The notes beneath the pieces were generated by a model. That model made no database searches, had not been told where the DNA came from, and saw only the letters and a list, made by a program, of their open reading frames with translations. From IMG/VR virus record IMGVR_UViG_2563366877_000002: a stretch of 51,594 nt of DNA; one strand, 5' to 3'. The DNA comes from a virus. Taxonomy: Duplodnaviria > Heunggongvirae > Uroviricota > Caudoviricetes. Within the stretch, counting starts at the first letter, position 1, and each line of letters starts with the position of its first letter. Made by a program: the position numbers and the translations under genes. Below, piece after piece: positions 3,309 through 51,594 of this stretch.

Positions 3309-3884
3309 CTACGGCAGTGCTGGCCATTCAATATCCTGTGCAGTTGACGTATCAACACGGTTCAGCAATACCCGATACTTTTTCCATGCTTCCAGCAACG
3401 AGATTTCTTCCTCCGTTGCAATTTCCAGATCTGCAGCATCCTGAAGCGGCGCAATATGCTCACTGGCTACCTGCATCAGGCTGTTTTTTGTTTCTTCCGC
3501 CTCCCGGATCCGGAACAGTTTTTCTGCTTCCGTATCCTTCACCCAGGCTGTGCCGTTCCACTTCTGATATTCCCCTCCCGGCGATAACCAGGTAACATTT
3601 TCCGGTAACGGACCGAGTTCAGAAATAAATAACGCGTCGCCGGAAGCCACGTCATAAACCGTTTTACCCCGATGTTCTTCAACGAGATGCCACGATGCCT
3701 CATCACTGTTGAAAACAGCCACGAAGCCTGCCGGAATATCTGGCGGTGCAATATCGATACTGTTTGCTGGCAGACCTGTATGAGGCGGAATATATGCGTC
3801 ACCTTCACCAATAAATTCATTAGTTCCGGCCAGCAGATTATAAATTTTTATGGTCCGTGGTTGTTCACTCATTCTGAATGCCAT
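3309..3884 (-). CDS. tfa: tail fiber assembly protein Tfa
   Basis: 191 aa, lambda Tfa-like; start overlaps stf stop (ATGA). Confidence 0.85.
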
Positions 3885-7620: not shown

Positions 7621-7721
7621 GTTCTGGGTTATAAAATTCAGCTGATACTGATACCTGCTGTGGATTTTTTCATCACCACAACCAGCAGATCGCTGATACT
7701 GGTTGTTGGTGTATGTAGTGG

Positions 7722-12300
<4,579 letters not shown>

Positions 12301-29372: not shown

Positions 29373-29718
29373 GATGGTGTTAACTCCAGTCATCGCTGGC
29401 ACTACCACTGCAGGTTCAGAGTTAAAAAAAACTATGATTTTTTTCATGATGTTACCGTAGTATGTGAGTATCCATCGAATAGATACCAAGCAAAAAAGCT
29501 CCCGAAGGAGCCTTCATTTTCACTTTTTTAAATCCAACGACAGACGGCTGGCATTTAAGTATTGTGAAATATTATCAAATGTAATCATCATTGATTTACA
29601 AAAGATACATTTTGCCCCGAAAGGATTCATGTCAGAAACATCAAAAGATGATGTTCTATACTGGGAACCATGACAACACGGGCATCTAAAGTGAATATGG
29701 TTTGTAATATTGTCTACC

Positions 29719-29931
29719 TCAAAGCGCCACTACATGAACAGCGGCAGGACCTTTAGGTCCGTTCTCAATACCAAATTCAACTTCCTGATTCTCAGTTAAT
29801 GTTTTGAAATCGTTGCTCTGAATTGCTGAGAAATGGACAAACACATCTTTGCTGCCATCTTTCGGCGTGATGAAACCAAAACCTTTTTCAGGGTTAAACC
29901 ATTTCACTAAACCAGTCATTTTGTTAGACAT
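29719..29931 (-). CDS. cspI: cold shock protein, CspA family
   Basis: 70 aa [34 protein letters not shown] with RNP1/RNP2 motifs. Confidence 0.85.
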
Positions 29932-30294
29932 AATTATTACCTTTTGAAGAAATTAGCCCTTGGGCAGAATGGTCCGAAAAAAAATATCAGAGAGAAAAAC
30001 CAACAAGGAAATCTCAAGAGGTACAAATAATAAAATTATAACAATGACTGCTTCAGATAAATTTGTAACAAACCAGAACACCATTAACGCATGATTAACC
30101 ACCCATAGCAAGGATTACTTTTGTAAAGAAAAACACAGCAATGAAAGAATAGCTTTATTTATTAATAATAACGTGTCATTCTGATTAAGACCTTTTATCT
30201 TACCCTTAAGATTTCAGGAATTTTGGCTCATGGAAGAGTCCTTTTTATTTAAATTTTACATTCCGCGATGTAAATGTTCCGATTTAATATTACC

Positions 30295-32321: not shown

Positions 32322-32602
32322 GAGATTGTGGTGCTTTTTGTGGGAGTCATCCACTTACGCACTTTGTTTTGCCATGCCAGCAGTTAGCTTCTGCTGTAAA
32401 ACTATTCATGCAGCAAACCTGCACTTCACCACAATGGTTAGCATACTTTTCCTGATTAAGATTTTGCCAAATATGCTAGCCATTGTTTCATGTATTGGAC
32501 CTCCTTACTTTTTATTAAAGAGATCCAATATTCACTACTCTGTCCGTATCTCTACTCAGGCATCAGCCTTCTTCGTTATCGTATACAGACGAGCGATGAA
32601 TT

Positions 32603-32818
32603 TTAATCAGTAATGATGACATTTGCTGCTGCAGGACCTTTAGCACCACTCTCTATAGAGAAGGTAACCTTTTGACCTTCAAATAAGGTTCGATAATTAT
32701 CATTCTGAATCGCAGAAAAATGCACAAACACATCTTTACTACCATCAACAGGAGAAATAAAGCCGAAACCTTTATCAGCGTTAAACCATTTTACTAAACC
32801 AGTCATTTTATTTGACAT
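32603..32818 (-). CDS. cspB: cold shock protein, CspA family
   Basis: 71 aa [53 protein letters not shown]. Confidence 0.85.
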
Positions 32819-33118
32819 TCTACATTCCTTAACTTGAGCCTTTCGGCATAAATGGTTTGCATAACAGAAACGACTTCGTACTTAATTGGAGAGACTCAAA
32901 GAAGGAATAAGTGAATAACACCTGAAATGAGAACTGCTTTAGTAAACTACTTCGTATATCGTCTGTTCTTCAAACCGACGCAATCATTAACGCATAGTTG
33001 AACATATGAAGCAATGTTTATTTTAGACATCCAGCCATCTTCAACCCCATCAAAAAACTATAGCTTTCTTCAGGAACGTGTGTATAGTGCGCCAAGTTAT
33101 CAGTATTAAGGAATTTTT

Positions 33119-35914: not shown

Positions 35915-36166
35915 TTATTCTCCTGAAAAAGCAGAAAAGCCAGCTTTTATTCCGATCTCTTTCAATGCCTGTAATGAAGTGACAAACTCACCTTCGCGCA
36001 AGATAAATCCGTCCGTGACCCGAGCATCCACAAAATTAATTAACGCAGCCCCATTCTTTCGCAAACACATAATGCGGTAATGACTAACAAGATTTCCATT
36101 TTCAACGCACACAGCATAGAGGCCATCTTCACAAAAAATTTTACGCAGTTCTTCGATGTTCATCAT
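35915..36166 (-). CDS. hypothetical 83-aa protein
   Basis: ORF between rem and hokD; no recognisable motif. Confidence 0.4.
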   Translation of the reverse strand: MMNIEELRKIFCEDGLYAVCVENGNLVSHYRIMCLRKNGAALINFVDARVTDGFILREGEFVTSLQALKEIGIKAGFSAFSGE

Positions 36167-36382: not shown

Positions 36383-36538
36383 TTACTCCTCAGGTTCGTA
36401 AGCTGTGAAGACAGCGACCTCCGTCTGGCCGGTTCGGATTCGTACCTCGCAGAGGTCTTTCCTCGTTACCAGTGCCGTCACTATGACGGTTAAACAGATG
36501 ACGATCAGGGCGATTAACATCGCCTTTTGCTGCTTCAT
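36383..36538 (-). CDS. hokD: Hok-family type I toxin
   Basis: 51 aa MKQQKAMLIALIVICLTVIVTALVTRKDLCEVRIRTGQTEVAVFTAYEPEE; hand translated; track only shows antisense ORF here. Confidence 0.85.
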   Translation of the reverse strand: MKQQKAMLIALIVICLTVIVTALVTRKDLCEVRIRTGQTEVAVFTAYEPEE

Positions 36539-38990: not shown

Positions 38991-39032
38991 TGAACCGCCC
39001 CGGGTTTCCTGGAGAGTGTTTTATCTGTGAAC

Positions 39033-39923
39033 TCAGGCTGCCAGATCATCGTTTCCGATGGAAGCATAATAAGCTTTTTCTGCTTCTGCCGGAGGAGTAT
39101 GGCCCAGCCTTTCCAGCAATCGTCGATTGTTATACCAGTCCACCCACGTGAGTGTGGCCAGTTCCACTTCTGCACGGTTTTTCCAGCTCTTACGGTGTAT
39201 TACCTCCGCTTTGTAAAGACCATTGATGCTCTCCGCCATCGCGTTGTCATACGAGTCGCCTGTACTTCCTGTTGATGCCAGTAATCCGGCTTCCTTAAGC
39301 CGCTGTGTGTAGGCCAGCGATACATACTGAGAACCTTTATCACTGTGATGGACCGTGCCGGACGGTCGACGGGCCCATAACGCCTGCTCCAGTGCATCCA
39401 GCACGAATGTCGTTTCCATGGACGATGAGACCCGCCACCCCACGATGTATCCGGCAAACACATCAATGATGAACGCCACATAGACGAAGCCCCGCCATGT
39501 GCTGACGTAAGTAAAATCAGCCACCCACAGCTGGTCAGGTCGTTCTGCCACGAACTGACGGTTTACGCGGTCGCCTGCGGCAACGGCTTTCCGGCTGATG
39601 GTCGTACGGACCTTTTTACCCCGGAGAACACCGGCAAGTCCCATAACCGCCATGAGACGTGCCACAGTGCATCTGGCCACTCTGATACCTTCCCGTAACA
39701 ACTGACGCCAGACTTTACGCACACCGTATACCTTGTGATTTTCATCGTATACGCGCTGTATCTCTTTCTTCAGCCAGTCATCGCGCTGCGCACGGGCACT
39801 GCGTTTATCCGGATGATGTCGCTGTTGCTGACAGTGGTAATACGTTGACGGGGCAATATGCAGTTCGCTGCATAGCGGTCCGACCCCGTACTGCTCACGC
39901 AGCTTATCCAGCAGTGGCATCAT
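39033..39923 (-). CDS. IS629-type transposase OrfB (rve)
   Basis: 296 aa DDE catalytic core. Confidence 0.85.
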
Positions 39924-40246
39924 TTTTTCCAGAGGCGGTCGAACTCCGCCTTCGCAAAATAAGCGGAAGCCTGGCGAAGGATATCGTTACTGCGGCGCAG
40001 TTCACGATTTTCACGTTCCAGCTCTTTCAGACGCTGACGTTCAGCGGTGGTGAGCCCTCCATCACCGCCCCCGGTATCCCGCTCATGCTGGCGAACCCAG
40101 ACACGCAGAGTCTCCGGCGTACAGCCAATCTTTGGAGCAATGGAACAAATTGTCGCCCATTGTGAGTCATATTCGCTCTGACTTTCCAGAACCATACGGA
40201 CTGCCCGTTGACGGACTTCGGGGGAAAAACGAGTATTTTTAGTCAT
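39920..40246 (-). CDS. IS629-type transposase OrfA (HTH)
   Basis: 108 aa [35 protein letters not shown]. Confidence 0.85.
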
Positions 40247-40300
40247 CCTGTTTACCTCTTTCTCAGGAAGTTTAGTCTCCAGGATTCCCGGGGCGGTTCA

Positions 40301-40683
40301 ACCAGCCTGTCCTGTAGTGTCTGATTGGCGCGCTCTACCCGCCCTTTTGCCTGCGGGCTGTTGGCATGGATTGGCTCGATGCCCAGTGTCTTTATCGCAC
40401 GAGTGAACTGGGTCAGCTCACCTTCCCGCTCTGGGTTATTTACCCTGAATATACTGTGTCTATCAGAGTAGAGAGCGAGCGGTACGCCATGATCATTAAG
40501 GTAACCCCGGAGGGTTTCCATGTAAGCCCGGGTTGTTTCAGCAGGCACAAAACGCAACGCCATCAACGCACTGGTGGCATCATCAATGAAAACGATCAGT
40601 GTACATCTGGGGCCTCGATTTTCAAACCAGTCATGAGGTGAGCCATCAATCTGGATCAGTTCACCGTAAGATGGTCGTCGCAT
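40301..40683 (-). pseudogene. middle fragment (rve core) of the transposase interrupted by IS629
   Basis: LIQIDGSPHDWFENRG..FIDDATS integrase-core motifs; frame differs from the N-terminal fragment. Confidence 0.55.
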
Positions 40684-40720
40684 GCGGCGTTGATATATAC
40701 GGGCAATTTTACGACGGCGT

Positions 40721-41092
40721 TCACGCCATACCCCCCTCTTCTATCATCCACTTTCTGAGAGTTTCAACGGATAAAGATAAACCGTGTATCTCGCGCAATT
40801 TTTCGCACGCAAACGTAGGTCCAAAATCAGCGTAACGGCCTTTGAGGAGTGAAATTACTGTTGCTCTGAATTCAGTAGAAAAGGAATTATTAGGACGCTT
40901 TCCACGTCGGTGGGAAACCAGACCAGAAGGCCCTTCATTTCTATACCGTTGCACCAGACGTTTAACCTGCCGAATAGAAATGCCAATGCGTGCCGCAGCT
41001 TGTTCCTGAGTAATATGTCGATTAATTGACTCCTGAATAATCTGAAGTCGGTGGAGTTCCTTATGACTCATCGTAACAGTTTCTTTGGTCAT
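40721..41092 (-). CDS. transposase N-terminal HTH fragment of the degenerate host IS
   Basis: 123-aa HTH-containing ORF upstream of, and out of frame with, the rve fragment. Confidence 0.5.
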   Translation of the reverse strand: MTKETVTMSHKELHRLQIIQESINRHITQEQAAARIGISIRQVKRLVQRYRNEGPSGLVSHRRGKRPNNSFSTEFRATVISLLKGRYADFGPTFACEKLREIHGLSLSVETLRKWMIEEGGMA

Positions 41093-41426
41093 GAAAAATC
41101 CCCCAGAGAATTGTCTGGGGACATTTTAGAATGGTTCAAAGGGGACATTACAGCTTGGTGTTAACAATAGCCTGCTTCTCCTTGCCTTTCGGCACGTAAG
41201 AGGCTAACCTACATGTGTCTGGCATGAAATTGGCCTCAGATTAATGTTAAGCGTCTTGCAGGACGCGTAATGTTAACTGGGGCTTTTCTCTACCTGCCGT
41301 TGGTGTTCGTGCCCGAGGCAGATAGCCTCAAGCACCCGCAGTCATTCTACTTAACTAAGATTTCCCCGCAAACCGTTTTTGTCCAGCACAGTAAATATCC
41401 AACTAAACCAATGGAGTTCGCTGTAT

Positions 41427-41606
41427 TTACCGCCAGTATTCAATGCACATGACCGCCATGAACACCCCTAAAAAAAGGGCATTTATATATCCAAATATTA
41501 ATATCAAAACATCAACTTTTTCCATATACCTTGCTGTGAAGATGATGGGCATACATGATGCGAACAACCAGAACGCAACAAACAAAAACTGCAATGCGTT
41601 TTTCAT
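41427..41606 (-). CDS. hypothetical small membrane protein (59 aa, two predicted TM helices)
   Basis: start preceded by AGGAGGA SD; MKNALQFLFVAFWLFASCMPIIF.. Confidence 0.4.
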   Translation of the reverse strand: MKNALQFLFVAFWLFASCMPIIFTARYMEKVDVLILIFGYINALFLGVFMAVMCIEYWR

Positions 41607-42758
41607 TATTCCTCCTACAATCAATGTGCAATTACATTTAAACACACCTCAATTTGGCCGGACATATAAATATCTAAACCAGAAAAAATCACTTACATAG
41701 CGTTACAAACTCTTTAGTCTAAAGGTTCATCGTAAAACATTCCCCATACTTATCAGTCCGTTCCGCGCCAGGTAGCTCATTGCCTTATCTGGCAACCTGT
41801 AATCAGGTTTCCGCTTTTTCAGTTGGCTGGTCGTTTAACCGACATAGTTAACCCATTAATCTAGTTGCCGGATGTTGGTGGATTTTCGCGTTTTAGTTGT
41901 TCATAAAAGTGCACAGCTTTAACCAATTCTTCTGATGTAACCGGGACTGGTGAGGCAGTGAATAAGGCCTGAATTTGATAGTTCGGCCTGTCGTTACAAT
42001 CCTCTTTTTTCGGTACATATTTCCAGTCACCAGACCACTACTTCCCCTGAAAGTCCGTAACGCCTTTTTTCACGTAGCGATATCGCCATGTCACTGGTTT
42101 TGCTTGCCCCGCCGTTTCATGCCCTTCCTGATAATTAATCTCGCTCATTCATCGCCCCACTCATCACAATATGCTTCGACCGGAGTTTTTCCCGCTTCAT
42201 AGTCATCACGCTAGGATTCGACATCAGCAGCACTTCCACCGCGTAACTCACCATAGTCCATTAATAGTTCATCCCGCTCTTCAAAACTGATGTTATATTT
42301 AGCTGAACAAAAATCAGCCACTTTGTTCTTCCTCATCGTCTTTTATTTCGTGGTATGAGTAATTGCAGTAGTTAAAGAAAATTTCTTATGCTCCGTCATG
42401 AATTTCATCAGGTGTTGCGTCATCGTCCACTTCGAATACATCCTCAAAATCTCCACCAGCTATTCCCGTTTCAATAATAATTTTGAACTTTCGCATTTCA
42501 CTACCGCCCTTTCGGGCGGCCTCCTGATGTTCTGAGGGTGCAGAAATCCATCCGGTTAAGGATTAAGTTTTATTTACAGAACTGAATTTAATTATTCAGA
42601 TATACGTATCTGTAACCTTACGAATCTACTCACTGGATGCCTCTTTCATAAAAATAATCCAGTGGGTTTTATCGTTTTTTCCCTGTTCGTTGACAGATAA
42701 CAGGCTTTCTATCTGTCAGTGCCAGAATCTGGCTTACCGGTATTTGCGTTTCATTCCA

Positions 42759-43115
42759 TTAAAAAATCAGAACGCCGTGCGGCCTCAACACCCGAAAAGC
42801 TTCTTTAAATCTCTGTCGCAAATCATCACGCCAGGCATCTTTATTCAGCCGTCCATATTTCTTTCCCATCCAGGCGTTATCACCAACACGCTCAAGATGC
42901 GGAGGGTCTAATACAACCATCGAAAAAGATGCGTCTGCAAATGATAATGCACGAAAATCTGCGATAATGTCAGGGCTGATAATCAAGCGTCTCCCATTGC
43001 GTAATGTGTATCCTTCTTTTCTGATATCGCTGAATATCGCCCGTTTGTCAGACTTATCGAACCAGAACATGCGGCTGCCACAGCACATATCAAGAATGGT
43101 TGCCGGTGCACTCAC
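42759..43115 (-). pseudogene. methyltransferase-like protein, apparently C-terminally truncated
   Basis: motif I-like ILDMCCGSRMF and motif IV-like VVLDPPH; only 118 aa; downstream sequence has only short broken frames. Confidence 0.4.
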
Positions 43116-43534
43116 TGCGCCACGTCCTGAAAATTACCCTGATAGAAAGCCAGTATGCGCTGCATAACTTCGCTCTTCCGGCACTCGCGACAGATTATGT
43201 TTAGGCGACTGTCGTAGCGACGTATTTCTCCGTCAGGTGATGACCAGATAAGGTCCGGATCAACCACAGCAGGTTTCTTCACCTTTGCCCTCGAGAGTTT
43301 TTTGCGGGCGTTTTGCCAGTCCTTACGCGCCTGTTCAGAGGGGAATAACCCGTAGCCGGAGTTGTATACATCGCCACTGGCTACCAGCTCTCTGGCAAGA
43401 ACGCTCATCAGATATCTAGTCGCACCTGTTTTAGCTTCCAGTTGCCGTAACGTCTCACGGCCGCTCTGGCGCACGAGTTCCACCACCTGCCATTTAATTT
43501 TTTCCCGCTCTTCTTGTGTAAAAACTTTTGCCAC
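43112..43534 (-). CDS. hypothetical protein (140 aa) in replication module
   Basis: ORF translationally coupled (ATGA) to the methyltransferase-like gene; occupies helicase-loader position but too short to call. Confidence 0.45.
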   Translation of the reverse strand: MAKVFTQEEREKIKWQVVELVRQSGRETLRQLEAKTGATRYLMSVLARELVASGDVYNSGYGLFPSEQARKDWQNARKKLSRAKVKKPAVVDPDLIWSSPDGEIRRYDSRLNIICRECRKSEVMQRILAFYQGNFQDVAQ

Positions 43535-43574
43535 CAGTCCCCCTTAAAATTACCTCATGACCTGAAATCAACAC

Positions 43575-44540
43575 TTATCCTCTGAAACCAGGCGGAATTT
43601 CTGTATCCGGTTCAGAAATATGATTAACACAACGCTGTACAGGTGAACGTCCCAGGCGGATGACCAGTTCGTCCCATTTTTCGCGGAGCTTTGACGGGCT
43701 CATGATGTTTTTTACCCAGAATGGATCTCGCTGAACCCGACCAAACATTTCGCAAATTTGTCTGTGGCTTCTGCCATCCAGCATCCGCATTGTGCGCACG
43801 TCATTGGCCCAGGCAGTCCAGTTAGGCTCTTTTGGTCGCATGATCTCGCCATCATCACTGGCTGCCTGTTCGTAGAGACCCACGATCCGCCCCCAGATCC
43901 ACTGCGCACACGCCAAATCCTCCCTGCTACCCCACTGGCGTTTTTTCGCACTAAACACAACCGCGTCGGAGTTCCGGGTTAAAGAATCCTGTTCAGTCGT
44001 CTGCGGGTCCGGTTGCGAAGCTTCCGGACGAAAAGTGTTTTTATTCTCTGTAGTAATCTCTGTTGTATTCTCTGTAAGATCATCAGGCCATTTTGACCCG
44101 ATGACATTGGGTCGTTTTGAACCAATGGAGCGTTTCATTTTGACCTCTTCCATCGTGTCATTTTGACCTGATGGAGCGGCGCATTTTGAACCGATGGATT
44201 CGCTCAATTTGCCACCATCTAAAAGCTCGCTCCCATAGTTGATCGTGTAGAAATTGGTCATATCGCGCTTTGATTTATTGAGCTTTTCACAACGCAAAAG
44301 CCCCAGCGTTTTCAGACTTGCAAACGCGCGCTTTAACGTTGACTCTGACCAGAATGGGAACTGTTCCAGCCATTGTTCCGTTGTGTTATAAATCCAGCGA
44401 ACACCATCACATTCCATGCCGGAGTTGGTATCTCTCAACCAGTAGTGCAGTTGTTGCAAAACAATGGCTTCGTTTAAGCCAATTTTCATTGCCAGCTGCG
44501 TGTTTATAACCAGTGGGCGTTCAGCAAAAAGAAGGCTCAT
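43575..44540 (-). CDS. replication initiator (lambda O-like replisome organiser)
   Basis: N-terminal wHTH-like region; repeated SIGSK peptide repeats encoded by iteron DNA; position after cro/cII-like genes. Confidence 0.6.
   Translation of the reverse strand: MSLLFAERPLVINTQLAMKIGLNEAIVLQQLHYWLRDTNSGMECDGVRWIYNTTEQWLEQFPFWSESTLKRAFASLKTLGLLRCEKLNKSKRDMTNFYTINYGSELLDGGKLSESIGSKCAAPSGQNDTMEEVKMKRSIGSKRPNVIGSKWPDDLTENTTEITTENKNTFRPEASQPDPQTTEQDSLTRNSDAVVFSAKKRQWGSREDLACAQWIWGRIVGLYEQAASDDGEIMRPKEPNWTAWANDVRTMRMLDGRSHRQICEMFGRVQRDPFWVKNIMSPSKLREKWDELVIRLGRSPVQRCVNHISEPDTEIPPGFRG
44091..44220. repeat. iteron array, putative phage replication origin inside the initiator gene
   Basis: 5-6 direct repeats of cATTTTGA(C/A)C.. 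spaced 23-24 bp (TTTTGA at 44091, 44115, 44138, 44161, 44184); adjacent short TCTCTGT repeats at 44041-44090. Confidence 0.6.
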
Positions 44541-45042
44541 AATTCCATCCAGCTTTTTGTTGGTATTGCTGTCGATACGCAAGCTTGAAAGCAATTGCTT
44601 TTTCTATAAGTTCGTCAGTTTCACGATCCACTACGGCAGGATCAGCAAAAAGCAGTCCGGACTCCACCACATCGCCATATTCTTTGTTTAACCCGGCGAT
44701 CATGCACGTGATGCTTTTTCCGTCAGTAATTTCACGATACAACCTGAAATCACTAATCCGGATAGCCTCCATAATCGCAGGCACTAGCGCCGTGAACTTT
44801 TCACGCTTATCCCTGGTGTCGATAGCCTTCCAGCGTTCGAATATCTTCACTCGATTAACACCAAGCGCTCGCTGATCAACCGCGCCACCTTCATCTGTGA
44901 CACGCTGAACATCGATGTTCGGGCGCTCTTTCAAAGCCCAGAATGCTTCAGTGATTAATATCGTCGCCTGCTCCTGTGTCATTCCTGGTCGACATATCCA
45001 GGCATCCAGAGCCTCACGAGCCTGTTCAGGAGTGATTTTCAT
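44521..45042 (-). CDS. hypothetical regulatory protein in cII position (173 aa)
   Basis: ORF between cro-like dicC and the replication initiator; family not recognised. Confidence 0.45.
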   Translation of the reverse strand: MKITPEQAREALDAWICRPGMTQEQATILITEAFWALKERPNIDVQRVTDEGGAVDQRALGVNRVKIFERWKAIDTRDKREKFTALVPAIMEAIRISDFRLYREITDGKSITCMIAGLNKEYGDVVESGLLFADPAVVDRETDELIEKAIAFKLAYRQQYQQKAGWNYEPSFC

Positions 45043-45256
45043 TGTTCAACCACCCCGCCCGCTTCGTCTTACGATATTCATCATAAACTTTGGGATCATA
45101 CTGAAGCTCCCCGCCAGATGCCTCCTGTAGACGCATCGCGCGACCTTCGGGAACTAAATCCCCTTTCCAGCTATAAAGCGAAGCCAAACGAATACCTGCT
45201 GCTTGTGCAAGTTTTGTTTTTGAACCGAAATACAAAAGAGCGTCAGTTTTAAGCAT
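45026..45256 (-). CDS. dicC: Cro-like repressor DicC
   Basis: 76 aa, divergent from dicA across operator region. Confidence 0.75.
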   Translation of the reverse strand: MLKTDALLYFGSKTKLAQAAGIRLASLYSWKGDLVPEGRAMRLQEASGGELQYDPKVYDEYRKTKRAGWLNNENHS

Positions 45257-45260
45257 TTAA

Positions 45261-45327
45261 AACACTTTTATTGTTAGTCATAACTAACAAGATAGATGTT
45301 AACAAAAACATAGTCAATACGATTTAG
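45261..45327. promoter_or_regulatory. dicA-dicC intergenic operator/promoter region with palindromes
   Basis: perfect palindrome TTGTTAGTcataACTAACAA (45261-45280) and related TTAGCattaGCTAA (45314-45327). Confidence 0.5.
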
Positions 45328-45339
45328 CATTAGCTAACT

Positions 45340-45747
45340 ATGGAAACAAAAAATTTAACTATCGGCGAACGCATCAGGTATCGTCGGAAAAACCTCAAAC
45401 ACACCCAAAGGTCTCTTGCTAAAGCCCTGAAAATCTCCCATGTGTCTGTATCACAATGGGAACGGGGTGATAGTGAACCTACAGGGAAGAACCTTTTTGC
45501 CCTCAGCAAAGTATTGCAATGCTCACCAACATGGATTCTATTTGGCGATGAAGACAAGCAACCAACACCACCTGTTGAGAAGCCAGTTGCCTTATCCCCC
45601 AAAGAACTAGAGCTCCTTGAGCTGTTTAATGCACTGCCAGAATCAGAACAGGATACCCAGCTCGCCGAAATGCGAGCTCGAGTAAAAAACTTCAATAAAC
45701 TCTTTGAAGAATTACTAAAAGCCCGTCAGCGGACAAATAAAAGATAA
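45340..45747 (+). CDS. dicA: HTH (XRE family) repressor DicA
   Basis: 135 aa METKNLTIGERIRYRRKNLKHTQRSLAKALKISHVSVSQWERG. Confidence 0.85.
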   Translation: METKNLTIGERIRYRRKNLKHTQRSLAKALKISHVSVSQWERGDSEPTGKNLFALSKVLQCSPTWILFGDEDKQPTPPVEKPVALSPKELELLELFNALPESEQDTQLAEMRARVKNFNKLFEELLKARQRTNKR

Positions 45748-45913
45748 CATCATCAATGAGTTATCTTTTACCACATCAATTATGTTAGCTATAGCATACA
45801 AAATCACTTGACCGATATGTTAGTCATGGCTAATCTTGTTTGCATCAACACACCGCACGGTGTTCTCAGCAAACAGTTCCGCTACCCCAGCGTTAAGGGG
45901 AAATGAGGTCCGC

Positions 45914-46069
45914 ATGGATACTATCGATCTTGGCAACAACGAATCTCTGGTGTACGGCGTGTTTCCAAACCAGGACGGTACGTTCACCGCGATGACGTAT
46001 ACCAAAAGCAAAACGTTTAAAACCGAAAATGGTGCCCGTCGCTGGCTGGAAAGAAACTCAGGTGAGTGA
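45914..46069 (+). CDS. ydfA: small protein YdfA
   Basis: 51 aa MDTIDLGNNESLVYGVFPNQDGTF.. Confidence 0.7.
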   Translation: MDTIDLGNNESLVYGVFPNQDGTFTAMTYTKSKTFKTENGARRWLERNSGE

Positions 46070-46070
46070 T

Positions 46071-46199
46071 ATGGATTTCGACACAATCATGGAAAAAGCT
46101 TACGAAGAATACTTCGAAGGTCTTGCCGACGGCGAAGAAGCTCTCAGCTTCAACGAATTTAAACAGGCGCTTTCCAGTTCGGCAAAATCTAACGGCTGA
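46071..46199 (+). CDS. ydfB: small protein YdfB
   Basis: 42 aa MDFDTIMEKAYEEYFEGLADGEEALSFNEFKQALSSSAKSNG; hand translated; starts 1 nt after ydfA stop. Confidence 0.65.
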   Translation: MDFDTIMEKAYEEYFEGLADGEEALSFNEFKQALSSSAKSNG

Positions 46200-46228
46200 T
46201 AAGCGAAACAGCACCGCGAGGAATCAGT

Positions 46229-46447
46229 ATGCAGAAACGAGAACCCGTCATCATCGCGCCAGACTATACCGATGATGAACTTTATGAGTGGATGCGCCAG
46301 AAAATTAATGCAGCGCAGGATCTGAAATGGGCCGATGAAGCCAGGGCTAAGCAGGCTGAAAATCTGTCCGCTCTGGAGCAGGATATCACCAATCTGGAAA
46401 AAGCAGCGGCATTAAGCATTGCCAGAATGATTACATACCCGCGTTAA
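46229..46447 (+). CDS. ydfC: small protein YdfC
   Basis: 72 aa MQKREPVIIAPDYTDDELYEWMRQKI.. Confidence 0.7.
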   Translation: MQKREPVIIAPDYTDDELYEWMRQKINAAQDLKWADEARAKQAENLSALEQDITNLEKAAALSIARMITYPR

Positions 46448-46786
46448 TAGCTAACCAACGAAGCTAAGGTTGGTAATTAAGGAGTTCTCCACGGGTGAGG
46501 TGGAGTGCGTGCGCCGGACACGGGTGAGCATCCGGCACTGACAGTTTACTGAAAGGATATTTCCCTGAAAAGTCAGACCATAACGCGAAAGCGCACGGCG
46601 AGGTAGCTGGTTCATAGATAGCCTGTCGTTAAATTTTCGTCGACCGTGCGCTTCCGGTTGTGGCAACCCGCGAAATGGTGCGGCGGTAAGTATGGCGGGG
46701 TTATTTCTTCCCCGTTGAGGACACCGGGTTGTCAGGTTGACCATACGCTTAAGTGACAACCCCGCTGCAACGCCCTCTGTTATCAA

Positions 46787-46844
46787 TTTTCTGGTGACGT
46801 TTGGCGGTATCAGTTTTACTCCGTGACTGCTCTGCCGCCCTTTT
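46787..46844 (+). ncRNA. dicF: DicF small RNA (ftsZ-targeting sRNA) with its intrinsic terminator
   Basis: TTTCTGGTGACGTTTGGCGGTATCAGTTTTACTCCGTGACTGCTCTGCCGCCCTTTTT matches remembered DicF; terminal GC hairpin plus T-run. Confidence 0.8.
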
Positions 46845-47014
46845 TAAAGTGAATTTTGTGATGTGGTGAATGCGGCTGAGCGCACGCGGAACAGTTAAAA
46901 CCAAAAACAGTGTTATGGGTGGATTCTCTGTATCCGGCGTTAATTGTTAACTGGTTAACGTCACCTGGAGGTACCAGGCACTGCATCACAAAATTCATTG
47001 TTGAGGACGCGATA

Positions 47015-47203
47015 ATGAAAACGTTATTACCAAACGTTAATACGTCTGAAGGTTGTTTTGAAATTGGTGTCACTATCAGTAACCCAGTATTTACTGAAGA
47101 TGCCATTAACAAGAGAAAACAAGAACGGGAGCTATTAAATAAAATATGCATTGTTTCAATGCTGGCTCGTTTACGTCTGATGCCAAAAGGATGTGCACAA
47201 TGA
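47015..47203 (+). CDS. dicB: cell division inhibitor DicB
   Basis: 62 aa MKTLLPNVNTSEGCFEIGVTISNPVFTEDAINKRKQE.. Confidence 0.85.
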   Translation: MKTLLPNVNTSEGCFEIGVTISNPVFTEDAINKRKQERELLNKICIVSMLARLRLMPKGCAQ

Positions 47204-47391
47204 ATTCAGCATTTGTGCTTGTTCTGACAGTTTTTCTTGTTTCCGGAGAGCCAGTTGATATTGCAGTCAGTGTTCACAGGACAATGCAGGAGTGTATGAC
47301 TGCAGCAACCGAACAGAAAATTCCCGGTAACTGTTACCTGGTCGATAAAGTTATTCACCAGGATAATATCGAAATCCCGGCAGGTCTTTAA
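47200..47391 (+). CDS. ydfD: small protein YdfD (lysis-associated), start overlaps dicB stop (ATGA)
   Basis: 63 aa MNSAFVLVLTVFLVSGEPVDIAV.. with N-terminal hydrophobic segment. Confidence 0.75.
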   Translation: MNSAFVLVLTVFLVSGEPVDIAVSVHRTMQECMTAATEQKIPGNCYLVDKVIHQDNIEIPAGL

Positions 47392-47483
47392 AACAGTTCC
47401 GTAATAAATATCCGGTTTCATTCTTATATGCCAGCAATGGCAGGGATTTGTTCATCCTTAAATCTGTCATGAGGTTAAAACAA

Positions 47484-49955
47484 ATGAGTAAAGTCTTTAT
47501 TTGCGCCGCTATTCCTGACGAACTGGCAACAAGGGAAGAAGGCGCTGTGGCTGTAGCCACAGCCATTGAAGCTGGCGACGAACGCCGTGCTCGAGCAAAA
47601 TTTCACTGGCAATTCCTGGAACATTATCCGGCTGCTCAGGACTGCGCTTATAAATTTATTGTCTGCGAGGATAAACCTGGCATACCCCGCCCTGCCCTCG
47701 ATTCATGGGATGCTGAATATATGCAGGAAAACCGCTGGGATGAGGAGTCTGCTTCTTTTGTCCCGGTTGAGACTGAATCCGATCCGATGAACGTCACTTT
47801 TGACAAGCTGGCCCCTGAAGTACAGAACGCTGTCATGGTTAAGTTCGACACATGTGAAAACATCACCGTTGATATGGTTATTAGCGCACAGGAATTGTTG
47901 CAGGAAGACATGGCAACATTCGACGGACATATCGTTGAAGCGTTGATGAAAATGCCAGAAGTTAACGCCATGTATCCGGAGCTTAAGTTGCACGCCATTG
48001 GGTGGGTTAAGCATAAATGTATTCCTGGTGCTAAATGGCCCGAAATTCAGGCAGAGATGCGCATCTGGAAAAAACGTCGCGAAGGTGAACGCAAGGAAAC
48101 CGGAAAATACACGTCTGTTGTTGATCTCGCCCGCGCCAGAGCCAATCAACAGTACACTGAAAATTCAACAGGAAAAATCAGCCCGGTCATTGCTGCCATT
48201 CATCGCGAATACAAGCAGACATGGAAAACACTGGATGACGAACTGGCCTACGCTCTCTGGCCTGGTGATGTGGATGCCGGAAACATTGACGGCAGCATCC
48301 ATCGCCGGGCAAAAAATGAAGTTATCGACAACGACCGCGAAGACTGGAAGCGTATCTCGGCATCAATGCGCAAACAGCCTGATGCCCTTCGCTACGACCG
48401 CCAAACTATTTTTGGCCTTGTCCGTGAGCGTCCGATCGACATTCACAAAGATCCCGTAGCACTGAACAAATATATCTGCGAATACCTGACGACAAAGGGC
48501 GTGTTTGAGAATGAAGAAACAGACCTGGGCACTGTTGATGTTCTCCAGTCATCAGAAACACAAACTGATGCAGTGGAAACTGAGGTATCTGATATCCCAA
48601 AAAATGAAACCGCGCCGGAAGCTGAACCATCTGTAGAGCGTGAGGGGCCGTTCTATTTCCTCTTCGCAGATAAGGACAGAGAAAAATACGGTCGCGCAAA
48701 CAAACTTTCTGGTCTGGATAAGGCACTGGCTGCTGGCGCCACTGAAATCACAAAAGAAGAATATTTTGCCCGAAAAAATGGCACATACACGGGCTTACCG
48801 CAAAATGTAGATACCGCTGAAGATTCAGAACAACCAGAGCCGATAAAAGTTACCGCTGACGAAGTAAACAAAATTATGCAGGCAGCCAATATCATCCAGC
48901 CTGACGCCGATAAGTTGCTTGCTGCATCACGTGGTGAATTTGTTGAAGGGATTAGTGACCCGAATGATCCGAAATGGGTTAAGGGGATCCAGACCCGCGA
49001 TTCTGTGAACCAGAACCAGCATGAATCGGAACGGAACTACCAAAAAGCGGAACAAAACAGCCCAAATGCGTTACAAAACGAGCCAGAAACGAAACAGCCT
49101 GAATCAGTGGCGCAACAGGAAGTGGAAAAAGTCTGCACCGCCTGCGGTCAGACCGGCGGCGGCAACTGCCCTGATTGTGGCGCGGTAATGGGCGACGCAA
49201 CATACCAGGAAACATTCGATGAAGAGTATCAGGTTGAAGTTCAGGAAGATGATCCGGAGGAAATGGAAGGCGCTGAACATCCACACAAGGAGAACACTGG
49301 CGGCAATCAGCATCACGATAGCGATAATGAAACTGGCGAGACGGCAGATCACTCAATTAAGGTGAACGGTCATCAAGAAATCACATCCACCAGCAGGACG
49401 TGTGACCATCTAATGATCGACCTTGAAACCATGGGAAAAAATCCTGATGCCCCGATCATCTCAATAGGTGCAATATTTTTCGATCCGCAAACCGGAGATA
49501 TGGGACCGGAATTTAGTAAGACTATCGATCTGGAAACTGCTGGCGGAGTCATTGATCGGGACACCATTAAATGGTGGCTTAAGCAATCACGCGAAGCGCA
49601 ATCTGCCATTATGACCGATGAAATCCCGTTGGATGATGCACTGTTACAATTGCGGGAATTTATCGACGAAAACTCCGGTGAATTTTTTGTTCAGGTCTGG
49701 GGAAATGGAGCCAACTTCGACAACACGATTTTGCGCCGTTCATACGAACGGCAGGGGATCCCCTGCCCGTGGCGTTACTACAACGATCGCGATGTACGCA
49801 CAATCGTTGAGCTGGGGAAAGCCATAGACTTCGATGCCAGAACGGCTATTCCATTCGAAGGTGAGCGCCATAATGCACTTGATGACGCCCGTTACCAGGC
49901 AAAATACGTTTCAGTTATCTGGCAAAAACTGATCCCGAGTCAGGCTGATTCTTAA
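47484..49955 (+). CDS. ydfE: large YdfE-like protein: acidic N-terminal region, C4 zinc ribbon, C-terminal DEDDh 3-prime to 5-prime exonuclease domain
   Basis: 823 aa from MSKVFICAAIPDEL; CTACGQTGGGNCPDCG; exo motifs DLET, GNGANFD, HNALDDA. Confidence 0.7.
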   Translation: MSKVFICAAIPDELATREEGAVAVATAIEAGDERRARAKFHWQFLEHYPAAQDCAYKFIVCEDKPGIPRPALDSWDAEYMQENRWDEESASFVPVETESDPMNVTFDKLAPEVQNAVMVKFDTCENITVDMVISAQELLQEDMATFDGHIVEALMKMPEVNAMYPELKLHAIGWVKHKCIPGAKWPEIQAEMRIWKKRREGERKETGKYTSVVDLARARANQQYTENSTGKISPVIAAIHREYKQTWKTLDDELAYALWPGDVDAGNIDGSIHRRAKNEVIDNDREDWKRISASMRKQPDALRYDRQTIFGLVRERPIDIHKDPVALNKYICEYLTTKGVFENEETDLGTVDVLQSSETQTDAVETEVSDIPKNETAPEAEPSVEREGPFYFLFADKDREKYGRANKLSGLDKALAAGATEITKEEYFARKNGTYTGLPQNVDTAEDSEQPEPIKVTADEVNKIMQAANIIQPDADKLLAASRGEFVEGISDPNDPKWVKGIQTRDSVNQNQHESERNYQKAEQNSPNALQNEPETKQPESVAQQEVEKVCTACGQTGGGNCPDCGAVMGDATYQETFDEEYQVEVQEDDPEEMEGAEHPHKENTGGNQHHDSDNETGETADHSIKVNGHQEITSTSRTCDHLMIDLETMGKNPDAPIISIGAIFFDPQTGDMGPEFSKTIDLETAGGVIDRDTIKWWLKQSREAQSAIMTDEIPLDDALLQLREFIDENSGEFFVQVWGNGANFDNTILRRSYERQGIPCPWRYYNDRDVRTIVELGKAIDFDARTAIPFEGERHNALDDARYQAKYVSVIWQKLIPSQADS

Positions 49956-50027
49956 TGTTCAACTGTCGCCGGTTGTGACTGGTATTCTGCAACCGGCGCT
50001 CGTCTGATGTAAGAGATAAAGAAATCG

Positions 50028-50279
50028 ATGAGCGAAGTAATCATGATTGTCTCTCCCGGCAAATGGGTATCCGAAGAGCAGTTAATTGCGCTGAAAGGAA
50101 TAAAAAAAGGTACGTTAAAAAAGGCCCGGGAAAAATCGTTTATGGAAGGAAGGGAATATAAGCATGTCGCTCATGACGGTATGCCATGGGATAACAGTCC
50201 ATGCTTTTACAACCTGGAAGAAATTGATCGCTGGATTGAGCGCCAGGCATCAGCAAGACCAAGACGTCATCTTACTTGA
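50028..50279 (+). CDS. xis: excisionase-like small protein
   Basis: 83-aa basic ORF immediately upstream of integrase. Confidence 0.5.
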   Translation: MSEVIMIVSPGKWVSEEQLIALKGIKKGTLKKAREKSFMEGREYKHVAHDGMPWDNSPCFYNLEEIDRWIERQASARPRRHLT

Positions 50280-50313
50280 CTAAAAGCCACACTAACTAAT
50301 GAGAGAAGTTGAA

Positions 50314-51594
50314 ATGAAATATCCGACAGGCGTGGAAAACCATGGAGGGAAATTACGTATCTGGTTTGTTTATAAAGGCGTAAGAGTCAGGGAAAACCTG
50401 GGGGTTCCTGACACAGCAAAAAACAGGCGCGTTGCAGGTGAGCTACGCGCCTCTGTTTGTTACGCAATAAAAACTGGTGTTTTCGACTATGCAAAACAGT
50501 TTCCCTCCTCACGCAATCTGGAAAAATTTGGTGAGACTCGACAAGATTTAACCATAAAAGAACTGGCTGAAAAATTTCTGGCACTGAAAGAAACTGAAGT
50601 CGCAAAAACATCACTCAACACATACCGTGCCGTCATCAAAAATATCCTGAGCATAATCGGTGAAAAAAATCTTGCCTCATCGATTAATAAAGAAAAATTA
50701 CTGGAGGTTCGTAAAGAGCTACTGACTGGATACCAGATCCCCAAAAGTAACTATATTGTTACACAACCAGGGAGATCGGCTGTAACTGTAAATAATTACA
50801 TGACAAATCTTAACGCCGTGTTCCAGTTTGGTGTTGATAACGGTTACCTGGCAGATAACCCGTTTAAGGGGATCTCGCCATTAAAGGAATCAAGAACCAT
50901 TCCGGATCCTCTTTCGCGGGAGGAATTCATCCGTCTTATCGATGCGTGCAGAAATCAGCAAGCCAAAAATTTATGGTGTGTTTCTGTTTATACTGGCGTT
51001 CGCCCTGGTGAGCTGTGTGCACTTGGATGGGAGGACATAGATCTGAAAAATGGAACAATGATGATCAGGAGAAATTTAGCAAAAGACCGTTTCACGGTAC
51101 CAAAAACACAGGCGGGAACCAATCGGGTCATTCATCTTATTAAGCCAGCAATCGACGCTCTCCGGAGTCAGATGACATTAACGAGACTGAGCAAAGAGCA
51201 TATCATTGATGTTCACCTCAGAGAGTATGGCAGAACAGAAAAACATAAATGCACCTTTGTTTTTCAACCTGAAGTGTCAGCGAGAGTAAAAAATTATGGT
51301 GACCATTTTACCGTTGACTCAATAAGGCAGATGTGGGACGCAGCGATAAAACGTGCCGGACTCCGCCATCGAAAATCATATCAGTCGAGACATACTTATG
51401 CCTGCTGGTCGCTGACAGCTGGTGCTAATCCGGCATTTATAGCAAACCAGATGGGCCATGCAGATGCGCAAATGGTATTTCAGGTATACGGAAAATGGAT
51501 GTCTGAAAACAATAATGCACAGGTAGCTTTGTTAAATACACAGTTAAGCGAGTTTGCCCCAACCATGCCCCATAACGAAGCAATGAAAAATTAA
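50314..51594 (+). CDS. int: tyrosine recombinase / phage integrase
   Basis: core-binding and catalytic domain pattern (..SRHTYAC..HADAQMVFQVYGKWM); start at second ATG with SD (ORF opens at 50299); stop is last codon of window. Confidence 0.85.
   Translation: MKYPTGVENHGGKLRIWFVYKGVRVRENLGVPDTAKNRRVAGELRASVCYAIKTGVFDYAKQFPSSRNLEKFGETRQDLTIKELAEKFLALKETEVAKTSLNTYRAVIKNILSIIGEKNLASSINKEKLLEVRKELLTGYQIPKSNYIVTQPGRSAVTVNNYMTNLNAVFQFGVDNGYLADNPFKGISPLKESRTIPDPLSREEFIRLIDACRNQQAKNLWCVSVYTGVRPGELCALGWEDIDLKNGTMMIRRNLAKDRFTVPKTQAGTNRVIHLIKPAIDALRSQMTLTRLSKEHIIDVHLREYGRTEKHKCTFVFQPEVSARVKNYGDHFTVDSIRQMWDAAIKRAGLRHRKSYQSRHTYACWSLTAGANPAFIANQMGHADAQMVFQVYGKWMSENNNAQVALLNTQLSEFAPTMPHNEAMKN

Follow-up and report, generated by a model that had tools for sequence, protein, structure and literature searches.

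An intact ydfABC-dicF-dicB-ydfD operon, almost certainly the dicBF operon known from Escherichia coli K-12, in a Qin-type lambdoid prophage

Operon layout and comparison with the K-12 locus

The stretch of DNA analysed here (the window, 51,594 nt) carries at 45914-47391 a set of genes in which, judged from the sequence and the ORF list, ydfA, ydfB, ydfC, dicF, dicB and ydfD are all intact and stand in K-12 order (Table 1). We identify the locus, almost certainly, as the dicBF operon of K-12, which is here the early-left (PL-equivalent) operon of an E. coli lambdoid prophage of Qin type, and nothing that we found in the sequence contradicts this identification. The operon sits 3' of dicA/dicC and 5' of an uninterrupted exonuclease gene, xis and int. 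Such a locus is already known: it is a textbook system, very common, and almost identical to the K-12 copy, and it has little significance beyond its correct annotation.

A preliminary description had read this segment as the complete operon, an interpretation supported here by the ORFs, by the Rfam, Pfam and NCBIfam models and by the K-12 alignment, all of which point to intact elements. Its extent needs one amendment: the genes do span 45914-47391, but the transcription unit would start upstream of them, at the putative promoter/operator (~45808-45836) between dicA and ydfA. The same account was right that an intact exonuclease gene (823 aa, 47484-49955), and not an IS, comes next, although its wording "beyond dicA" should read "beyond ydfD".

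Alignment against the cryptic prophage Qin of K-12 MG1655 was gapless and returned 24 substitutions in 2227 nt, i.e., 98.9% identity (window 45257-47483). None of the 24 falls in dicF, in dicB or in either operator/promoter core. The K-12 locus (ydfABC-dicF-dicB-ydfDE, b1571-b1577) shares gene order, spacing and chromosomal site with the window, and its dicF, dicB, DicA and Rem are identical to the copies here. The dicA gene has one synonymous change and ydfA two, whereas at the protein level the window differs by YdfB E20D and S28N, YdfC N36D and YdfD P47L; to these are added a G>A in the Shine-Dalgarno sequence (SD) of dicC and eight substitutions in the ydfC-dicF spacer. The two prophages also differ downstream, where ydfE' of K-12 is truncated by IS2E, while the window retains the full exonuclease gene as well as intact xis and int. 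RefSeq loci with 99.9% identity are annotated alike.

One could ask whether the small ORFs and the RNA match arose by chance in intergenic prophage DNA, given that no Pfam or NCBIfam model matched ydfB or ydfC and that the opposite strand also has antisense ORFs of 111 aa. We regard this as having virtually no chance of being true. Matches to DicF, DicB, YdfA and YdfD reach E-values of 1e-15 to 1e-40, and the dicBF family scores, taken with the K-12 alignment, were judged far beyond chance; moreover, the locus is 98.9% identical to a characterised one and is kept in thousands of genomes. On these sequence comparisons the chance reading is already refuted, and the dicBF identification stands.

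Table 1 Features of the dicBF operon and its surroundings (positions in the window).
Feature	Position	Strand	Description
rem, antirepressor of DicA	35915-36166	-	83 aa, 100% identical to K-12 Rem
dicC, Cro-like	45026-45256	-	NCBIfam DicC 155.7 bits vs 130; Pfam P22_Cro
dicC-dicA divergent promoter/operator region	45257-45339		Putative operator function, from K-12 literature
Operator-like palindromes, dicC-dicA region	45272-45289, 45324-45337
dicC promoter-like site	45317-45289	-
dicA, CI-like repressor of dicBp and dicC	45340-45747	+	135 aa; NCBIfam DicA 234.3 bits vs 101; Pfam HTH_3
Second, imperfect operator-like site	45783-45800		Repeat search
Putative dicBp	45808-45836	+	-35 TTGACC, 17-nt spacer, -10 TAATCT (45831-45836); K-12-identical sequence
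Operator-like site TGTTAGTCATGGCTAA, overlapping putative dicBp	45818-45833		Repeat search
ydfA	45914-46069	+	51 aa; Pfam DUF1391, E 1.7e-28
ydfB	46071-46199	+	42 aa
ydfC	46229-46447	+	72 aa
DicF precursor spacer (ydfC-dicF)	46448-46787	+	340 nt, non-coding
dicF small RNA	46788-46840	+	53 nt; Rfam RF00039
dicF-dicB spacer (dicB leader)	46841-47014	+	174 nt
dicB	47015-47203	+	62 aa; Pfam PF05358 / NCBIfam NF049927
ydfD	47200-47391	+	63 aa; DUF1482, PF07358, E 5.8e-24
Weak terminator-like hairpin after ydfD	47429-47442	+	Terminator scan
Exonuclease gene, full-length form of K-12 ydfE'	47484-49955	+	823 aa, uninterrupted
Excisionase gene	50028-50279	+	Pfam DUF1233 (putative excisionase), E 1.6e-31; RefSeq annotation agrees
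Tyrosine integrase gene	50314-51594	+	426 aa; window ends at its stop codon

The DicF RNA, its precursor and the operon's proteins

The Rfam DicF model (RF00039) matched with 76.7 bits (E 2.9e-15; gathering score 48), and the covariance match is full length, covering model positions 1-52 of 52 at 46789-46840. Compared with K-12 b1574, the 53-nt DicF has zero differences, both target-pairing regions included. Its 3' terminator hairpin, with a folding energy of -15.9 kcal/mol (z = -2.05), runs into UUUUU at 46841-46845. We also paired DicF with the ftsZ leader of K-12, the host ftsZ lying outside the window: in the duplex, ...CAGUUUUACUCCG... pairs with CGGAG/AAACU around the ribosome-binding site and the AUG. 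The naive energy of this duplex was equalled or beaten by 75 of 1000 shuffles, which is not significant, and it was excluded from the evidence. The pairing between DicF and ftsZ has been proven genetically with compensatory mutants, and for an identical RNA (PMC5069750).

Upstream of DicF, the precursor spacer folds into a long hairpin at ~46577-46679, and the same fold is found in the window and in K-12. Among the spacer substitutions, C46596 pairs with G46646 in this hairpin, giving a G-C pair here and a G.U pair in K-12. The hairpin is presumed to be the RNase III substrate. In K-12, RNase III cuts at +813/+814 (PMC10448788), and if transcription starts a few bases past the putative -10, the corresponding cut would be placed near 46656, in the 3' arm of the hairpin. 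The 190-nt DicF species is accordingly predicted to have its 5' end near that position and its 3' end in the U-run of DicF. Further downstream, in the dicB leader, lies the hairpin CCTGGAGGTACCAGG (46964-46978), whose loop differs from that of K-12 by one substitution. The Rfam model STnc100 also matched over its full length at 46838-47047, at a sub-threshold score (31.6 bits vs 47).

The antisense 111-aa ORFs lie at 46451-46786 and 46816-47151; coding support was not found for them and both were dropped as candidate genes. The first lies opposite the structured DicF precursor, and its protein is altered by four of the eight spacer substitutions. Some RefSeq records carry a "hypothetical protein" inside the matched stretch, possibly one of these two ORFs.

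DicB was matched over its entire length by Pfam (E = 1.9e-40; 136.8 bits vs 27; residues 1-62 of 62) and by NCBIfam (132.8 bits vs a curated cutoff of 100), and the dicB nucleotide sequence is that of K-12. Protein identity with K-12 DicB thus suggests that the product is a MinC-dependent division inhibitor that also inhibits ManYZ (PMC6832061). YdfD scored 84.2 bits against a threshold of 25 with DUF1482 (PF07358), has both of its two conserved cysteines (Cys32 and Cys45), and is identical to K-12 YdfD at 62 of 63 residues; it is probably a lysis protein that acts by inhibiting IspG. The ydfD start and the dicB stop codon overlap in the sequence ATGA. These results bear out the earlier reading of DicF with its terminator hairpin and of an intact DicB with an overlapping ydfD: DicF has not diverged and the dicB frame is unbroken in the K-12 alignment, and the roles in cell division and phage sensitivity given there for DicB and DicF are as published (PMC5069750, PMC6832061, PMC10448788).

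The key products match those of K-12 exactly, and on this ground the mechanism worked out there can be transferred to this copy; it is drawn from four sources (PMC10448788, PMC5069750, PMC6832061, PMC8835842). On this model, the CI-like DicA would bind palindromic operators and repress dicBp and dicC, and the Cro-like DicC, together with the antirepressor Rem, would flip the switch and relieve this repression. The resulting polycistronic ydfABC-dicF-dicB-ydfD transcript would be cut by RNase III in the upstream hairpin, yielding the 190-nt species, and by RNase E, yielding the 53-nt DicF, whose 3' end would be set by its own intrinsic terminator. With Hfq, DicF would then repress manX, xylR, pykA and ftsZ by base pairing, in the last case at the ribosome-binding site, as described for ftsZ and for metabolic mRNAs (PMC5069750). 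DicB would bind MinC and deliver it to ZipA at the septum, so that the Z ring dissolves, and by way of MinC DicB would also block ManYZ and thereby exclude lambda and 434; the published effects on the Z ring via MinC/ZipA and on ManYZ via MinC include ~100-fold resistance to lambda as well as resistance to 434 (PMC6832061). YdfD would inhibit IspG and lyse dividing cells, in agreement with a report that it binds IspG and lyses cells and that both of its domains are needed (PMC8835842). By analogy with K-12, the host therefore has a functional-looking DicF/DicB/YdfD module that, once derepressed, could make the cells filament and lyse and could exclude lambda-type phages by way of ManYZ.

Lambda Kil, encoded in the PL operon, and KilR of Rac are likewise small early-left lambdoid products under repressor control. 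Both block FtsZ-ring assembly, but they are proteins unrelated to DicB and work by other mechanisms, DicB acting via MinC and ZipA, and compared with them dicBF adds a small RNA, DicF, that represses ftsZ translation.

The DicA/DicC switch and changes private to this copy

The genes dicA and dicC are divergently arranged, and the DicA protein is that of K-12. Exact matches to TTAGYN4RCTAA were found at three sites, all of them in the dicC-dicA and dicA-ydfA intergenic regions. For the 16-nt operator pattern, three matches compare with 0.28 expected; both patterns were derived from these very sites, which makes the statistics partly circular. When one mismatch was allowed, the total did not exceed chance (at least five matches in 39 of 100 shuffles), and only the three exact sites are informative. 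A consensus promoter scan upstream of ydfA did not call a + strand promoter, because the -10 of dicBp matches at only three of six positions; the putative dicBp was therefore assigned by its identity with K-12 and not by the scan. In published K-12 work, deletion of dicA led to a 22-fold derepression of dicBp. The distant rem gene probably encodes a trans-acting inducer of the operon, a function taken from K-12 (PMC10448788).

The closest complete genome is that of strain A38, with five differences in 7074 nt, and three positions (45266, 46334 and 47339) differ from both A38 and K-12. The first, C>T on the + strand, is a G>A change in the SD of dicC (AAAGGUG to AAAAGUG, 6 nt before the AUG), and the predicted anti-SD pairing drops with it from -3.9 to -0.4 kcal/mol; this allele was found in none of the 719 genomes holding the dicA/dicC region. 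The second underlies YdfC N36D. The third, C>T, gives YdfD P47L, a rare change: 12 of 3875 records have its exact 61-mer. P47L falls within the C-terminal domain (residues 29-63), which YdfD needs in order to lyse cells (PMC8835842). All three changes could alter switch behaviour or YdfD activity. As DicC of K-12 is required for spontaneous and stress-induced dicBp switching, the SD change might make repression more stable; such an effect is speculative, and neutrality or a sequencing error would explain the change equally well.

A rival reading would hold that the operon is intact and that its control and output are attenuated: less DicC would be translated, the DicA/DicC switch would flip more rarely, and YdfD P47L would lyse cells more weakly, representing an early taming of a toxic module. 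The loss of predicted anti-SD pairing, the absence of the SD allele from all 719 region-holding records, and the position and rarity of P47L (within the lysis-required residues; 12 of 3875 records) are in line with such attenuation, and in K-12 DicC is required for spontaneous, urea-induced and heat-induced activation of dicBp (PMC10448788). However, these are single nucleotide changes that could be neutral or sequencing errors, DicC is dispensable for Rem-mediated induction, and deletion of dicC in K-12 left basal dicBp activity unchanged (PMC10448788). We consider attenuation distinctly unlikely. Extending it to the whole element, one arrives at a full-length Qin-type prophage close to the ancestral state, in which point mutations and not deletion are taming the toxic early-left operon, the SD change biasing the switch towards repression and P47L blunting lysis, a scenario that we would call highly improbable. 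If true, the alleles would be a natural pair with which to test what sets the frequency of dicBp switching.

Prophage context and distribution

The window comprises a whole Qin-type lambdoid prophage, from the ydfJ' remnant to int, at the site between ydfJ' and rspB; strain A38 has the same genes annotated, with rspB adjoining int, and its prophage is 99.95% identical to the window over 40301-51594. Downstream of ydfD, the weak terminator-like hairpin probably coincides with the expected 3' end of the 1,608-nt transcript of K-12, where none longer than ydfABC-dicFB-ydfD was detected (PMC10448788). Residues 1-256 of the exonuclease are 100% identical to K-12 YdfE, whose gene then enters IS2E; residues 246-625 resemble the middle of RecE, and residues 642-813 match an Rv2179c-like 3'-5' exonuclease domain (E 2.5e-67). 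The rest of the cargo includes lambda-like head and tail genes, lysis genes, cspB/F/I, hokD and relBE. An IS3-family insertion of 1310 bp (38991-40300) is present in the window; A38 is without it.

This completeness invites the question of whether the module is not a host-domesticated part of a cryptic prophage but the working early-left operon of a still inducible one, in which DicF, DicB and YdfD would serve as lytic host-takeover functions like lambda Kil. The prophage is of full length, with head, tail and lysis genes and an intact exonuclease, xis and int, and isolated temperate phages carry the same operon. Phages PhiR42_1 (98.6%) and Tritos (98.0%) contain the 1478-nt stretch in full, the record of the latter annotating DicF, DicB and YdfD; phage mEp460_ev081, of which 65% of the stretch is matched at 94% identity, has been reported to be functional (PMC10448788). 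Against inducibility, the early-right region of the near-identical A38 prophage (ydfW to the replication genes, within the 99.95%-identical part) has frameshifted genes and an ISEsa1 remnant, and the window has its extra IS3-family insertion. We rate this working-operon reading as rather unlikely; in either case the identity of the operon as dicBF is unchanged.

Of 5426 complete E. coli genomes, 4665 have part or all of the 1478-nt stretch and 2230 have at least 80% of it, the median number of places per genome being two, in agreement with published surveys (PMC5069750). PPompW prophages (from strains carrying Stx2a phages) and Stx2a records have only ydfC to dicB (61% coverage). The junction that IS2E breaks in K-12 is uninterrupted in 3477 of the 5426 genomes, which makes K-12 the exception and the window the common state; the full-length exonuclease-xis-int arm is the state from which Qin of K-12 decayed. 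Finally, the dicA/dicC immunity region occurs in only 719 genomes compared with ~3870 for ydfD, and the operon is therefore best viewed as a mosaic module that has been joined to differing immunity regions.

A complete Qin-type prophage and its composite exonuclease gene

The window (1-51594) runs from the end of the ydfJ' remnant to the stop codon of the integrase and is therefore a single, complete prophage of the Qin type that carries lambda-like genes for morphogenesis. The characterised Qin copy of E. coli K-12 is far less complete. Judged from its sequence, the 823-aa 'exonuclease' encoded downstream of ydfD is a composite protein. Specifically, residues 1-256 are those of K-12 YdfE, and residues 246-625 are similar to the middle part of RecE/ExoVIII, which is non-catalytic, with a score of 283 bits that falls well short of the equivalog cutoff. 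At residues 642-813, the nuclease domain found in RecE is replaced by an Rv2179c-like DEDDh 3'-5' exonuclease domain.

Variants and a candidate leader in the dic region

Two substitutions were noticed in and around the division-inhibition operon. At 45266, in the 5' leader of dicC (minus strand), which codes the Cro-like partner of the repressor DicA, a G>A change turns the Shine-Dalgarno motif AAAGGUG into AAAAGUG and is predicted to weaken the anti-Shine-Dalgarno duplex from -3.9 to -0.4 kcal/mol. Across 719 E. coli records holding the dicC region the allele was absent throughout (0/719); it is private to the window. The second is P47L in the lysis protein YdfD (window position 47339, codon 47), two residues past the conserved Cys45 and within the C-terminal domain, which is required for lysis (PMC8835842); the exact 61-mer carrying this allele was recovered from only 12 of 3875 matching records. 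Between dicF and dicB, a full-length STnc100 match scored below the Rfam gathering score (31.6 bits vs 47, E = 1.9e-4), and the STnc100 'sRNA' family may really represent the dicB leader.

A second hok/sok-type locus and mobile or structured elements

The strong sok antitoxin match marks a second hok/sok-type locus, distinct from hokD, at which the Rfam scan of the window gave no sok match. This second locus is flanked by an HTH gene on one side and a frameshifted gene on the other, in a stretch lacking annotation in A38, the E. coli strain with the closest complete genome. The A38 prophage, although otherwise near-identical, lacks the IS3-family element, and the BLAST segments flanking this element overlap by 3 bp, which suggests a target duplication. 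A38 also has no counterpart of the segment bearing the isrC match (about 7657-9341). The IS009 match overlaps a tfaQ-like gene, and the two cspA-type leaders correspond to cspI and cspB, the cold-shock genes carried by the prophage, an arrangement that is the same in K-12 Qin.

Window coordinates of genes, mobile elements and structured-RNA matches
Feature	Coordinates	Strand	Details
IS009 match	3343-3541	-	Rfam, full-length, 221 bits; tail-fibre end
isrC match	8781-8903	-	Rfam, full-length, 150 bits; tail-fibre end of prophage
cspA-type thermoregulator leader, two copies	29692-30077 and 32587-32979	both -	Rfam
hokD	36383-36538		
IS3-family element	38991-40300		1310 bp; inserted inside older ISEsa1 transposase remnant
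ALIL frameshift pseudoknot	39849-39965		within IS3-family element
sok antitoxin match	41166-41337	-	Rfam, 99.8 bits vs 59
STnc100 match	46838-47047	+	spans dicF-dicB spacer and start of dicB
823-aa 'exonuclease' gene	47484-49955	+
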